Sequence record: NC_028894.1
Source of the DNA: Escherichia phage vB_EcoM_VR20
Direction: 5' to 3' (one strand)
DNA: 64,000 nt
Positions 55,593 through 60,309 of this stretch are shown here, in pieces; positions within the stretch are counted from its first letter, which is position 1; each line of letters starts with the position of its first letter. The notes below the pieces were generated by a model. It saw nothing but the letters and a program-made list of their open reading frames with translations, was not told where the DNA came from and did no database searches. Made by a program: the position numbers and the translations under genes.

Positions 55593-56171
<579 letters not shown>

Positions 56172-56175
<4 letters not shown>

Positions 56176-56405
56176 TTCACTTCCTCGCCAGTTGCGATAT
56201 CATATTCTACCAAACGAAGGCCATCAGTCCAACCTTGCACGGAGATATAGGTAGTCGGGTAAACAATTTCTTTACCATTCCATTGGCCACCGTCCCAGCA
56301 TTCCATAAAGCCTTGTTCGCCCTGTTCGTGGAACCAGTCAACAAACATCTTCAGAGCTTCATCAGAGCCTTCAATTGTCAATTTAGACATATTTTTTCCA
56401 GTCAC
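56172..56405 (-). CDS. small hypothetical protein
   Basis: 77-aa ORF. Confidence 0.4.
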
Positions 56406-56682
56406 TAATTAATCGCACATCCTGGTCATAGGTCAGGAGGCTACGAGTGATAATACCCTTACAAGGTCCAGAAATAAATTCCAGAGTAAAGTAAGGAACC
56501 AACTTCATCAAGCGAATACTCGGAGCAGTGCAACGAAATCTGGACCCAACAAAAGGTCCAGACAAAAACACATACTCAAAGAAATTTGCTTTATTAAAGA
56601 TTTCAAAATTCTTTACGAAATCTTCAGACCTAACTTTTGGAATAAAATAGATTTGGTCAAAAAGCTCTTCATGGGTCATCAT
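56383..56682 (-). CDS. small hypothetical protein
   Basis: 99-aa ORF. Confidence 0.4.
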   Translation of the reverse strand: MMTHEELFDQIYFIPKVRSEDFVKNFEIFNKANFFEYVFLSGPFVGSRFRCTAPSIRLMKLVPYFTLEFISGPCKGIITRSLLTYDQDVRLISDWKKYV

Positions 56683-57206
56683 TGCATTCCTATCACAAAG
56701 AATAACGGCAAAGGCTTATCACCTTGACACATAAATTTATTCATCATTACCTGATAAGCTTCATAGAACTTATCCATTGCAGGGAGGCGAATAGGTTCTT
56801 CAATAATGATTAAAAGACGCGTAAAACGCAATCCACGGTACTTATGGAAATTATCTTCATCAAGGAAACTGCGTACAGTATCATAGACAACGAATCCAGG
56901 TCGCTCAACATTAAGATGTGGTTGTGCCTTAGAAACCCGCTTTATTATATTACAGATTTCTCGTGAGCGATGCGAAGAACTCGACATAACAATCACATCA
57001 TTACCTTTGGAAACCCAATCCGCAGCAAACTGCGCAATGGCACTTGTTTTACCTGTTTGTCGTCCACCGTCAAGTCTAAGGGTACCAAACTCTTGCATTC
57101 TTGAAGCTGGTTCATACCAGGTGTATTGGTCTGAATCTAAACGTTCAATGGCGCGTTCAGCGAAGGCGTGCATTAAGGTTAGATAAATGGGAGTTAAAAA
57201 TTTCAT
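56679..57206 (-). CDS. small P-loop NTPase
   Basis: 175 aa; Walker A GGRQTGKTS; Walker B-like LLIIIEEP. Confidence 0.45.
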   Translation of the reverse strand: MKFLTPIYLTLMHAFAERAIERLDSDQYTWYEPASRMQEFGTLRLDGGRQTGKTSAIAQFAADWVSKGNDVIVMSSSSHRSREICNIIKRVSKAQPHLNVERPGFVVYDTVRSFLDEDNFHKYRGLRFTRLLIIIEEPIRLPAMDKFYEAYQVMMNKFMCQGDKPLPLFFVIGMQ

Positions 57207-57366
57207 AGTTGTCTCTTAGTTGTGGGGCCATTCCTTGGCACATAATTCGTCCATGTATCCGTATGTAAACCCTTTACCGCACTTGGGCTCGACCTTATTA
57301 CAGGTAGGGAAAGGCCCATCACTCAGAGGACGCGACGTTCATGAGGAGAGGGTCGGCTTGCCTTTA
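57207..57366. other. unusually G+C-rich 160-bp intergenic region, possible structured RNA or regulatory element
   Basis: No convincing ORF; central stretch roughly 55-60% G+C by hand count in an AT-rich genome; plus-strand ORF 57220..57417 judged spurious. Confidence 0.3.
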
Positions 57367-57666
57367 TTAGAAAGAACCAGAGCCTTTAATTGTGTTCTGG
57401 CGACCTTTATTTTCTAATTCAGAATGGTCAATTTCATATGCTTGTGCTACGCCAAAGGCCTTTTTAACTTTAGCTAAAGAACCTTTAGATGTAACAATAT
57501 TAAAAGTATTACCTTTAGTAAAATCAACCAAATCCACTTGTACACCTTGTTTACCGAGGCTTGCGACAATAGCATCAACATATTGTTGGTCTAAATTGCC
57601 CTGGACTCCGATTTGAAATGCTTTAGGAGCTTTAGCTTCTGTGATAAATTCTTGATAAGTTTTCAT
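57367..57666 (-). CDS. internal-protein-like gene 1 with capsid-targeting sequence
   Basis: 99 aa beginning MKTYQEFITEAK, matching the conserved N-terminal targeting and prohead-protease cleavage sequence of T4 internal proteins. Confidence 0.6.
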   Translation of the reverse strand: MKTYQEFITEAKAPKAFQIGVQGNLDQQYVDAIVASLGKQGVQVDLVDFTKGNTFNIVTSKGSLAKVKKAFGVAQAYEIDHSELENKGRQNTIKGSGSF

Positions 57667-57722
57667 TTATTCTCTCCAAGTTGATGGGATAATTATGCAC
57701 TATCCCATCAAAAAGTAAACAG

Positions 57723-57986
57723 TTATGCTTTACCGCCAGAAACAATACCAAAGGTCTCAAAGTCCCATTCAATATCGTCAACATCAACTTTCTTACCAGC
57801 AACCACGAATGCGATTTCGCGACGTTTTGCATAGGTGACAATTTCTTTACCATCACCGCCAAAGAAAGAATAACCATTGCGCTTCATGGTGCCAAAGTCT
57901 TCAGCATCACCAGCAAACGCGCGGACTTTAAAGGAACCAGCAGGAGCTTTAGCAGATTCAGTAATAAATTCTTGATAAGTTTTCAT
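57723..57986 (-). CDS. internal-protein-like gene 2 with capsid-targeting sequence
   Basis: 87 aa beginning MKTYQEFITESAK. Confidence 0.6.
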   Translation of the reverse strand: MKTYQEFITESAKAPAGSFKVRAFAGDAEDFGTMKRNGYSFFGGDGKEIVTYAKRREIAFVVAGKKVDVDDIEWDFETFGIVSGGKA

Positions 57987-57999
57987 AATGTCTCTTTAA

Positions 58000-58314
58000 T
58001 TAAGCTTTAGGGAAATCGCGCAAAAACGCATCATAAAGTTTATTACCAATACGACGGAATGCTTTTGCTGCATGAACGTTATCCGGGTTTGCAATTTTAA
58101 TCTGCATTACATGACTACCCGCCCATGATTTAGCTTCGTCATAATAACCTTTAATTTCTTTAATAGTCTTGCGTTTGCCGCCAGGACCATCAACAGTAAT
58201 TTTCCACGAACCCGTGCTTGTTTCACTTGGTGGGGTTAATTGTTCAATCCAGACATAACCGCCTTCAACACGTTTTTGGGTGGATTCAGTAATAAATTCT
58301 TGATAAGTTTTCAT
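58000..58314 (-). CDS. internal-protein-like gene 3 with capsid-targeting sequence (start trimmed to MKTYQEFITE)
   Basis: Track ORF 58000..58353 contains MKTYQEFITEST at residue 14; trimmed to that Met. Confidence 0.55.
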   Translation of the reverse strand: MKTYQEFITESTQKRVEGGYVWIEQLTPPSETSTGSWKITVDGPGGKRKTIKEIKGYYDEAKSWAGSHVMQIKIANPDNVHAAKAFRRIGNKLYDAFLRDFPKA

Positions 58315-58362
58315 TTTATATTCCATTGTTTGGTTGATAAAATCATTATACAACCTTTTTAG

Positions 58363-58779
58363 TTAAGCGTACACAGCTTTCCCATAGTATTTGTACCAGG
58401 TAGGCTTTTGAGAAATTTTCTCATTCAATCTGGCTTGACTGATTTCAATTGACCAGATTGATGGTTGATAATCATTCTTCCATTCATCAGGAATATCATT
58501 TAAATCTTGGGTAGAAATATCTTTTATGTTAAACCCTCGCTTTAAACATTCCGCAATAAGTTCTTGATGACGGTTTTTAAGGAACAAAAGTTTATCATAA
58601 AAGAAGGTGACATGACCAGTCCCTAAAAGAAAAGATGATGGGATTTTAAAGTCAGAAACCTTTTTACCATTTTGTACATGTTTGCGAACCGCACCAAACA
58701 CGCGAGGAAGCTCACGATATTCAGCCATAAGATGTTGGTCAGCAAGTTCAGATACCAGGGTTAAATTAATGCGAGTCAT
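58363..58779 (-). CDS. denV: endonuclease V (pyrimidine dimer DNA glycosylase)
   Basis: 138 aa; [35 protein letters not shown] and [10 protein letters not shown] match T4 DenV as I recall. Confidence 0.9.
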
Positions 58780-58805
58780 GTTTGTTCCTCCAAGTAGTTG
58801 ATGGG

Positions 58806-58838
58806 ATAATAATACATCAATACGAGGAGGTTGTAAAC
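58806..58838 (-). promoter_or_regulatory. sigma70-type early promoter, -35 GTTTACA, 17-bp spacer, -10 TATTAT, TATCCCATCAACTACTTGGAGGA leader
   Basis: Minus-strand motif upstream of denV, overlapping the 3' end of the internal-protein-like gene 4. Confidence 0.5.
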
Positions 58839-59120
58839 TTATTTTGTGGAAGCAGCCGAGATATATTTTTCAAGACGCTGTTTCATCAGCGAGCCGTTCT
58901 TAGCGATTTCTTCCGGTTTATCGCACATACGCAATAGAGCTTCAAGCTTAGTGATATCAGATGTCCGCTCAAATTTGCGAGTATCTACCTTACTAGCAAG
59001 TTCGGAAATACGCGCTAACAGACTTTCGGCTTCTACCAAAGCTGTGCCCAGCTTAGTTGCAAATGTGTCAGTAGCTTCATTAAGAGTGGTCACGGTCAAA
59101 AATTCATTATAGGTTTTCAT
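58839..59120 (-). CDS. internal-protein-like gene 4 with divergent capsid-targeting sequence
   Basis: 93 aa beginning [15 protein letters not shown]; between e and denV where T4 carries ipIII and ipII. Confidence 0.55.
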
Positions 59121-59601
59121 ATGCTTTCCAAGTTCCTGTTTTAAATGTTGAGATTACACGTTTCGCTCGATTAGGTGTTTGTTTGTACCATTTGGATTGA
59201 GCCAGGTTAACAGCAGCTTCGTCCCAACGTTTCTGTTGAAGCAACCGAAGGGAGTTAGTAAACCCAGCAACGCCGGCTTCACCCATTTGGAAGACCATAT
59301 TAATCAGGGCACAGCGACGAACTTCGTCAAGACTATCATACACTGGTTTTAATTTAGCATTACGCATAACACTCGCACGTGCTTTTTCCACTGAACGGTT
59401 AAACAAGGTTTCAGCTTCAACCTGGGTTATGCGACCATTGCAGACGCGACCCATGAGCTTGTCGAGCTCGGCACGAGCAACATCTTTAGACGGGTTCTTA
59501 GTTATCAGTTGCCCGATACCGATGGTCCAAAAGCCTTCGGTATCTTTATACAAATCCAACTTACAACCTTCATCTATGCGTAACATTTCGAATATATTCA
59601 T
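59107..59601 (-). CDS. e: lysozyme (endolysin)
   Basis: 164 aa; [12 protein letters not shown]...[16 protein letters not shown] matches T4 lysozyme with catalytic Glu/Asp/Thr context. Confidence 0.9.
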
Positions 59602-59627: not shown

Positions 59628-60083
59628 TTATCCGAAAATTTGGGTCAGTACCTTGTACATCGATTTGCCCATCACGTATTGCCATTGGCTCGGTTTAATC
59701 AGAGCAAAAGCATCGAACTCTGGGACTGTACTACCATCCGGGAAGGTATGATAGGCAGAGCATTTACTATGTCTGAATTGTTCATGCTCAACCGGAACCG
59801 TATACAAAAACAGGTGAAGGTTTTTGTTATCTGAATAACGGAACTCACCGAGGTCTTTTAAGAATGCTGGGTCGTATTGGGTAAATCCGGTTTCTTCTTC
59901 GGTTTCACGAATAGCGGCTTCAATCGGGGATTCACCAGCTTCAACATGACCCTTAGGGATGTCCCATTTGTGCGCAGACATACCTGGTTTACGAGAACCG
60001 GTCACACGACCCATGAATAACTCTTTATCTTCAGTCATGAAAATAATGCCAGCAGATAATTCCTTCACTTTCTTACTCATCAT
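59628..60083 (-). CDS. nudE: Nudix hydrolase (start trimmed to MMSKKVKEL)
   Basis: Nudix box GHVEAGESPIEAAIRETEEETG; about 151 aa from the trimmed start; directly after e as in T4. Confidence 0.8.
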   Translation of the reverse strand: MMSKKVKELSAGIIFMTEDKELFMGRVTGSRKPGMSAHKWDIPKGHVEAGESPIEAAIRETEEETGFTQYDPAFLKDLGEFRYSDNKNLHLFLYTVPVEHEQFRHSKCSAYHTFPDGSTVPEFDAFALIKPSQWQYVMGKSMYKVLTQIFG

Positions 60084-60309
60084 CACGTTCCCAAGATTTT
60101 TTAAAGATTTCGGCCACAATAATTTCAACGCATGTTTCTGTTGACGGGCTTTCACTATCAGATATTTGGACCATATAATCGGAAATTGGGCGGAACATAT
60201 CTAAGTCAGTTTCTAAATCATCTTTGATTTTCTCTTCTGATGTACCTGTATCATAGGAATACAGATAAGAATCACATGACTCGGATTTAATATAAATTGC
60301 AATACTCAT
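60073..60309 (-). CDS. small hypothetical acidic protein
   Basis: 78-aa ORF. Confidence 0.4.
   Translation of the reverse strand: MSIAIYIKSESCDSYLYSYDTGTSEEKIKDDLETDLDMFRPISDYMVQISDSESPSTETCVEIIVAEIFKKSWERDDE

Follow-up and report, generated by a model that had tools for sequence, protein, structure and literature searches.

The sequence analyzed here is a window of 64,000 nucleotides from Escherichia phage vB_EcoM_VR20 (NC_028894.1), a T4-like phage whose nearest relatives are SP18, AnYang, VR7, and JS10 (~97% identity over the region). All local genes lie on the minus strand, and a gap at positions 57207-57366 separates the stop codon of the last of a series of internal-protein (IP)-like genes from the ATG of the P-loop gene vs.8 (Table 1). 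As judged from sequence comparison, this gap contains a conserved, strand-specific, non-coding three-way-junction RNA motif, which is also present in T4, and the element is very probably a functional structured RNA. The original prediction had described a G+C-rich non-coding island at this position, with 55-60% G+C in its core by hand count, and had proposed a structured RNA, a processing site, or a regulatory element. The island is real: the gap has 50.6% G+C against 39.7% in the whole window (z = 2.4), and only 0.66% of all 160-nt windows are equally rich. The hand count was accurate as well, because the richest 60 nt (57303-57362) reach 61.7%, in the top 0.02% for that window size, and the richest 80 nt of the gap reach 58.8%. 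The proposal itself is supported by conservation across genera, by covariation on the gene-sense strand, and by the lack of a conserved protein frame.

Table 1. Features of the gap upstream of vs.8 and of its neighborhood (window positions; paired strands are given 5' to 3' on the minus strand).
Feature	Position	Strand	Basis or remark
Whole non-coding element	57207..57366	-	From ip7-like gene stop to vs.8 start codon; same sense as all flanking genes
Three-way-junction motif	57270..57309	-	R1 match; flanking-base pairing; P1 covariation
P1 closing helix, CCCU paired with AGGG	57309-57306 with 57273-57270	-	Encloses the 32-nt core
Hairpin Pa, ACCU-GUAAUA-AGGU	57292..57305	-	Stem invariant; loop G-U-R-R-N-A
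Linker CGA between Pa and Pb	57289..57291	-	CA in diverged second copies
Hairpin Pb, G-C and C-G pairs	57279..57288	-	Variable loop of 3-6 nt (CCAAGU in the window)
Junction strand GGUAA	57274..57278	-	Invariant; invariance partly ascertainment, as patterns demanded GGTAA
5' domain, T4-like phages only	57310..57365	-	H1 in RNAalifold; compensatory changes
Helix H1, AAAGGC paired with GCCUUU	57365-57360 with 57315-57310	-	Encloses H2
Hairpin H2, CUCA (57345-57342) paired with UGAG (57325-57322)	57345-57322	-	Upper stem GA(A)CG/CGUC
3' tail, T4-like phages only	57227..57258	-	Two conserved GGA motifs; conserved alignment columns
AUACAUGGACGA, first GGA motif	57258-57247	-	Conserved columns
Hairpin GCC-AAGGAAU-GGC, second GGA motif in loop	57239-57227	-	Pairs hold in 20-23 of 23 sequences
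vs.8 ribosome-binding region AAGAGA (57217-57212) and start codon (57206-57204)	57204..57217	-	
vs.8, P-loop gene	56679-57206	-	
Three further IP-like genes	Between denV and the gap; last 57367-57666	-	
denV	58363-58779	-	
IP-like gene	58839-59120	-	
e (lysozyme)	59107-59601	-	
nudE	59628-60155	-	

Conservation in relatives, which the original prediction had named as its own test, was found on a large scale. The 160 nt of the gap matched 1,035 of 50,697 phage records at 80-99% identity (80-87% between genera), including Tequatrovirus (T4 and T2), Mosigvirus-like, Klebsiella, Salmonella S16, Yersinia, Erwinia, and Enterobacter phages. The same query gave short matches to unrelated rV5-like myoviruses and to the 45-kb siphophage Ivi. 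A 45-nt core query matched 983 phage records, and the core is shared by T4-like, rV5-like, Pylas, Ivi-like, and KP591P1-like phages as well as by unplaced metagenomic phages. Loci that were read directly, together with three pattern scans of IMG/VR and one metagenome scan, defined a core of 32 nt, which reads ACCUGU-RR-N-AAGGUCGAG-(loop)-CGGUAA on the gene-sense strand. A covariance model of the core (R1) has a single match in the window, at 57274-57305 (55.7 bits, E = 2e-16). The core is absent from 5,426 complete Escherichia coli genomes and gave only two chance-like matches among 185,579 species genomes, which assigns it to virulent phages; no host or prophage origin was found. At the level of sequence, the 32-nt core is nearly identical across unrelated families of virulent enterobacterial phages.

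In the predicted fold, the closing helix P1 stacks directly on hairpin Pa, so that the junction linkers are 0, 3 (CGA), and 5 (GGUAA) nt long. The bases that flank the core (5' of the core and 3' of GGUAA) can pair in all 60 distinct sequences, from all phage families, as A-U (37), U-A (9), U-G (7), C-G (6), or G-C (1), whereas shuffles gave a mean of 30.6 and none of 2000 reached 60. The next P1 pair outward is kept in 52 of the 60. Among T4-like phages the core-adjacent pair is U-A in 7, C-G in 6, A-U in 5, and U-G in 5 sequences, and one metagenomic clade has the P1 variants GCACU/AGUGC, GCGAU/AUCGU, and GCGCU/AGCGU. All 46 core variants keep the pairing of Pa; a compensatory change is seen once (GCCU/AGGC, in the second motif copy of locus L021). 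When its stem was freed in an IMG/VR scan, only chance-level matches were returned, which indicates that the Pa stem is invariant in sequence. Of 34 Pb variants, 32 have G-C as the first pair; the second is C-G (26), U-A (3), G-C (2), or A-U (1), that is, any of the four Watson-Crick types. The G-U pairs are compatible with the minus strand only.

An explicit model comprising H1, H2, P1, Pa, Pb, and the 3' hairpin was counted on 23 T4-like sequences. Of its cells, 91.9% are paired, and 36 carry changes in both partners. Its covariation score of 0.215 was reached by none of 500 shuffles, for which the value is 0.095, and sliding the partners gave at most 0.086. RNAalifold recovered H1, Pa, and the 3' hairpin from the same 23 sequences. 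Compensatory changes are seen in five of the six H1 pairs, and T4 has the version GGGAA/UUCCC. By eye, P1 can also be drawn in another register that leaves a 3-nt linker, or as part of a switch involving upstream hairpins, in KP591P1-like and T4 types; the statistics back the adjacent register. Three T4-like contigs of 170-180 kb carry tandem pairs of the motif ~80 nt apart (L021 5101-5243, minus strand; L045 9028-9171, plus strand; L110 370-513, plus strand), and the linker in the second copies has 2 nt.

Existing annotation treats part of the element as protein-coding, either as the N-terminus of vs.8 or as a separate gene of 34-39 amino acids (aa). In T4, vs.8 is annotated from an upstream ATG as a 219-aa protein (L003 4254-4913; NC_000866 64253-64912), whose first 40 codons cover the RNA motif (the T4 counterpart of the element lies at ~64.79-64.93 kb of NC_000866). 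Small coding sequences of 34-39 aa are annotated in some relatives (XAO54420.1 and WMU95784.1; records OQ845958 and PP693301), and some open reading frame (ORF) in the PVIRSSPSAV frame recurs in 29 of 36 distinct T4-like sequences. However, the first 40 codons of T4 vs.8 show no protein conservation, and the homologous start is Met41 (MRTFLTG, 179 aa), which matches the MKFLTP start of the window. PHROG 1488, the vs.8 family (177 profile positions), spans the 175-aa protein of the window end to end and covers the short form only, and the 1986 T4 entry X04567 gave five alternative vs.8 starts, one of which is the homologous 179-aa form. Past the core, T4 and the window are read in different frames, and the vs.8 frame of the window has two stops and no start upstream. 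The PVIRSSPSAV-frame ORF lacks its start in seven sequences, with starts missing in the Klebsiella, RB27, L021, L032, and L059 types, and its end varies from codon 15 to 44, with frameshift divergence after the core. The variable positions of the element are not third-codon positions, and ORF-free DNA surrounds the core in rV5-like, Ivi-like, and KP591P1-like phages. A coding micro-ORF or a vs.8 N-terminal extension was rejected on the grounds of the frameshifts, missing starts, and variable ends, and it is extremely unlikely that the element codes for protein. The window also has a 39-aa ORF with a GTG start (57203-57322, minus strand), which overlaps the vs.8 ATG via ATGA; this ORF is probably spurious, because it is not conserved across relatives. 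The vs.8 start can be corrected in T4-type annotations, and spurious micro-ORFs can be removed from the records that annotate one over the motif.

An action at the DNA level has also been considered: the element might be a promoter, a mobile cassette of the PeSL type, or a recombination linker where the hypervariable internal-protein cluster ends. The element does sit at the border of a hyperplastic gene cluster, and the occurrence of the same sequence in unrelated phages could reflect transfer. A weak sigma-70-like sequence, TTTACA-16-AATTAT, lies inside the element (57242-57269, minus strand); GTTTAC at this site resembles the -35 consensus of T4 early promoters. These hexamers are kept only in the window-type (type A) versions and are missing from T4-type versions. 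PeSL cassettes of T4-type phages occur in many dispersed copies per genome and combine a stem-loop with an early promoter. By this definition, a PeSL cassette was rejected, because R1 has one match in 64 kb and the promoter-like hexamers are weak and absent from T4-type versions. Furthermore, the flanks of the core vary but stay complementary, with G-U pairs that work on one strand only, and the strand of the motif always matches the direction of transcription. A DNA-level element is very unlikely.

Known RNAs do not account for the motif. ARAGORN found no tRNA or tmRNA gene in the whole 64-kb window, in agreement with the failure of the original prediction to fold a tRNA cloverleaf, and the Rfam tRNA model does not match the motif, either in the window or at 14 further loci; a tRNA or tRNA-like gene was rejected on these results. 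A search of positions 56000-59000 with Rfam 15 (E <= 10) gave only a 16.6-bit chance match to snoU61 elsewhere, and Rfam at gathering scores detected only tRNA genes in 82 kb of motif loci (14 loci), including all the neighboring ones. The covariance-model scans that had been proposed as a check therefore came back negative at the motif, for tRNA and for every Rfam family, and the cataloged riboswitches, ribozymes, small RNAs, and leaders were rejected as explanations. Resemblances to the 3' end of 16S rRNA (GUAACAAGGU), to RNase P RNA (GUGCGGUAA), and to the Cas9 tracrRNA nexus, the T-loop, the k-turn, and the MazF ACA site were judged to be chance or untestable. Core sequence strings were not found in the papers searched, nor did keyword searches find a description of the motif. 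From the sequence comparisons, the motif is a new RNA family, since no known family fits, although it may be among the 10,006 uncharacterized candidate structured RNAs in a catalog from IMG/VR, which has tRNA-like and gene-upstream candidates (Fremin, Bhatt and Kyrpides, 2023; PMC10690425). The evidence in that catalog is of the same type, namely conservation and covariation in viral contigs. The novelty refers to the family and not to the mechanism, and the finding offers a seed alignment for the family.

In T4-like phages, the core is extended by the 5' domain and by the 3' tail, whose GGA motifs are kept in all T4-like versions and which ends ~20 nt before the vs.8 start. The motif is always upstream of vs.8 in these phages, mostly directly; in the Klebsiella type an internal-protein gene intervenes. 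A leader bound by CsrA carries two or more GGA motifs close to the ribosome-binding site or overlapping it, and one or more of them are in the loop of a hairpin; the two GGA motifs of the T4-like tail resemble such sites. The added 5' domain and the GGA-rich tail beside the vs.8 start suggest that the module has been incorporated into the vs.8 leader. This raises the possibility of a riboswitch-like or protein-controlled leader, in which the junction would bind a small molecule or a regulator and the 3' tail would set vs.8 translation. The constant position upstream of vs.8 fits such a leader, as do the conserved tail, the compact junction with ~20 invariant unpaired bases, the tandem copies, which some riboswitches also have, and the alternative pairings that can be formed around P1. 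On the other hand, the content downstream of the motif is incoherent across phages and may be vs.8, an internal-protein gene, tRNA genes, promoters, or hundreds of empty bases; neither a terminator nor an obvious sequestering helix was seen, and no Rfam aptamer matched. In a riboswitch, a ligand-binding aptamer is coupled to an expression platform in front of functionally coherent genes; the motif has an aptamer-like junction and a conserved T4-like tail, with incoherent downstream content. A cis-regulatory leader is improbable as the function of the motif.

Outside the T4-like phages, the surroundings are different. Context was read for 44 loci without the T4-like tail and for 56 loci of T4-like phages, and several of the loci that lack tRNA genes are incomplete contigs. 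Same-strand tRNA genes are present in 29 of the 44 loci without the tail, and opposite-strand tRNA genes in none. In 24 of the 29 loci, the nearest tRNA array starts 207-1,328 nt downstream, usually at 200-600 nt; the motif is within the array in L057 and L087, 60 nt past a tRNA in L098, and 46 nt past the last tRNA in L115. rV5-like phages, which carry a true tRNA-Tyr gene as well as the motif, have a strong sigma-70 promoter 116 nt upstream of the motif that matches the consensus at 11 of 12 positions, and a further strong sigma-70 promoter 55-84 nt downstream. KP591P1-like siphophages (~46 kb) have an ORF-free leader of ~900 nt with repeated long hairpins upstream of the tRNA array.

Several side observations concern these leaders. 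Two copies of CCCYUAGAGGGCUUGAWAGUGC flank the motif in rV5-like phages (L006 1400-1640, minus strand; L028 8430-8700, plus strand). The hairpins of the KP591P1-like leader (L012 5100-5960, minus strand; also L016, L023, L025, and L087) are of the type ACAACAGGUAAGAGCAUUG ... CAGUGCUCUUAUCGUUGUG, and the motif is situated between two long hairpins, after a covarying hairpin with the loop AAGCGG. In Ivi (L007 1290-1480, minus strand), a strong promoter, TTGACA-17-GATACT, is found just downstream of the motif; a CU-rich unit of ~75 nt (CCUCCUGUUCCAUCCCUCUGCUCUCC), driven by this promoter and closed by an intrinsic terminator, resembles a small regulatory RNA gene. The ~40-kb contigs L054 and L085 have a common non-coding stretch ~20-120 nt 3' of the motif (UCUAGCYUCGARAUGU..GUAACGGC), suggesting a larger structured RNA in this lineage.

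The association with untranslated leaders brings to mind processive antitermination or an anti-Rho activity, in which the nascent RNA would bind RNA polymerase, Nus factors, or Rho, so that transcription passes long untranslated stretches and tRNA arrays, as with put, nut, and rrn boxA. HK022 put, lambda nut boxB, and rrn boxA are likewise short structured modules in promoter-proximal leaders of phage or untranslated operons, and their sequence is fixed by contact with the host transcription machinery; put, which forms two stem-loops just downstream of PL and PR, makes RNA polymerase resistant to terminators in cis. The motif is on the strand of the tRNA arrays, in long ORF-free leaders, and in rV5-like phages it follows strong sigma-70 promoters at a distance of ~80 nt; all phages in which it was found depend on the RNA polymerase of the host, and no intrinsic terminator was found directly after it. 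Lambda boxB has the form CCCU-GAAAA-AGGG, and Pa resembles boxB in shape, with a closing U-A pair and a loop that starts with G and ends with A. However, kinship to HK022 put was rejected: with filters off, R1 scored at most 7.9 bits in the whole HK022 genome, not at put, and putR read directly differs. No boxA was recognized, and a three-way junction with a GGUAA strand has no counterpart among these antiterminators. Furthermore, the downstream gene of T4-like phages is translated, so that protection from Rho is not obviously needed there. rV5-like phages and Ivi have a second promoter between the motif and the tRNA genes, and polymerases starting from it would not carry the motif RNA, while in L115 and L098 the motif follows tRNA genes. 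Antitermination is unlikely.

A further candidate is a new self-cleaving ribozyme or a dedicated RNase processing signal, with polycistronic early transcripts or the precursors of tRNA arrays as its substrate. Small ribozymes are well known from phage genomes, and a small three-way junction with invariant junction strands and covarying helices, no consistent gene partner, positions in or beside tRNA arrays, and tandem copies would all be in keeping with such a role. The motif is similar in outline to the hammerhead ribozyme and purine-type riboswitches, which also combine three helices with conserved strands at the junction and stems that covary, within ~40-50 nt, but its linkers of 0, 3, and 5 nt and their sequences (CGA and GGUAA) match none of them. 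The hammerhead, a three-way junction with the core strands CUGANGA and GAAA and a UH cleavage site, was rejected, as these core strands are absent and no Rfam hammerhead model matched; neither did any other known ribozyme family in Rfam 15, and the sequence-invariant helix Pa would be unusual for a hammerhead-like ribozyme. From the sequence features, a processing element of this kind is improbable.

The original prediction had pointed to T4, where this general region carries tRNA genes and small stable RNAs. This does not hold for the position of the gap itself: the T4 tRNA genes and rnaC/rnaD (species 1 and 2) are ~6 kb upstream of the T4 motif, transcribed in the same direction, and the motif is upstream of vs.8. 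Like the motif, rnaC/rnaD are phage non-coding RNAs; they are co-transcribed with the T4 tRNA genes on the same strand, and outside the T4-like phages the motif is in or next to tRNA arrays too. Unlike the motif, they carry a tRNA-like T-arm and CCA features, and the sequences are unrelated by reading. R1 gave a best score of 7.7 bits (E = 4.4) on the T4 rnaC/rnaD region (L116), and kinship was rejected. From the hint of a small stable RNA there remains the association with tRNA arrays, only in non-T4 phages, but not the sequence kinship to rnaC/rnaD.

The tRNA arrays also invite the idea of a decoy for nucleases that target tRNA-Tyr, namely PtuAB of Septu or retron-Eco7. By eye, the CCUGUAA of Pa resembles phage tRNA-Tyr genes, with UGUAA as in the anticodon loop CUGUAAA, and Pb is at the position of the long variable arm (GUCGAG compared with GUC...GAC). 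The variable arm of tRNA-Tyr is cleaved by Septu and retron-Eco7, and T4, which has no tRNA-Tyr, fails to escape Septu (PMC13096335). Since T4 has the motif and is still restricted by Septu, and since the expected 7-nt anticodon loop on a 5-bp stem is absent from the fold, the decoy idea is weakened; rV5-like phages, moreover, hold both the motif and a true tRNA-Tyr gene. A tRNA-Tyr decoy is highly improbable.

The preferred interpretation, with a probability that we regard as about even, is that the gap encodes a conserved docking-module RNA on an early transcript, the T4-like version of a motif widespread in virulent phages of Enterobacterales. The RNA would be read from the minus strand as part of an early transcript running from the internal-protein genes into vs.8. 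Because the Pa stem, its loop, and the junction strands are fixed in sequence, P1 and Pb keep only their pairing, and the downstream content is incoherent, the motif may be a self-contained module on which a single conserved partner from the host docks, and not a regulator of one particular downstream gene; this partner would be a protein or else the machinery of transcription or RNA processing. It would be made early, in rV5-like phages from a strong sigma-70 promoter dedicated to it, and its carriers would be leader transcripts that are translated little and in most cases lead into tRNA gene arrays. The outcome would be either a small stable RNA trimmed out of the transcript or an action in cis on the carrier transcript. 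That the motif works by docking a conserved trans factor is, taken by itself, a claim for which the chances for and against are evenly balanced.

Several results weigh against this interpretation. The search patterns fixed much of the core, including the required GGTAA, so that its apparent invariance is inflated. The pairing of Pa is supported by a single compensatory change, since the stem never varies otherwise. Folded singly, the sequence is no more stable than its shuffled versions (z = -0.5). When each 5' flank was paired with its own or a foreign 3' flank (duplexfold), no significant difference emerged (p = 0.13), since CCC/GGG makes up the majority of P1 helices, and this test was replaced by the position-wise pair counts given above. 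Among the T4-like loci, any same-strand tRNA gene is present in only 7 of 56, with no array nearby, and the invariable position of the motif before vs.8 in these phages fits a cis-regulatory leader equally well.

T4 is among the most closely studied genomes, and the element was overlooked inside the doubtful N-terminal extension of vs.8. The near identity of the 32-nt core across unrelated virulent families and its absence from bacterial genomes imply strong selection for contact with a feature that their hosts share. If the partner is the transcription, RNA-processing, or defense machinery, the motif would represent a new route by which phages manipulate the host through RNA. It is possible, although doubtful, that the motif constitutes a new class of functional RNA, made early alongside tRNA arrays, which is either a self-cleaving or processing ribozyme or an RNA that captures a host machine; that machine may be RNA polymerase or Rho, an RNase, or a defense nuclease. 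The extra RNAs in phage tRNA arrays have been a question since the species 1 and 2 RNAs of T4 were described in the 1970s, and the motif could help to explain such additional non-coding RNAs.

Pfam and PHROG scans of the neighboring proteins gave no clue to the function of the element. Four IP-like genes of the window (57367-57666, 57723-57986, 58000-58353, and 58839-59120, all on the minus strand) encode a common N-terminus, MKTY(Q/N)EF(I/L)T, which is of the capsid-targeting sequence type. In the window these genes are interrupted by denV, whereas the order in T4 is e-ipIII-ipII-denV.

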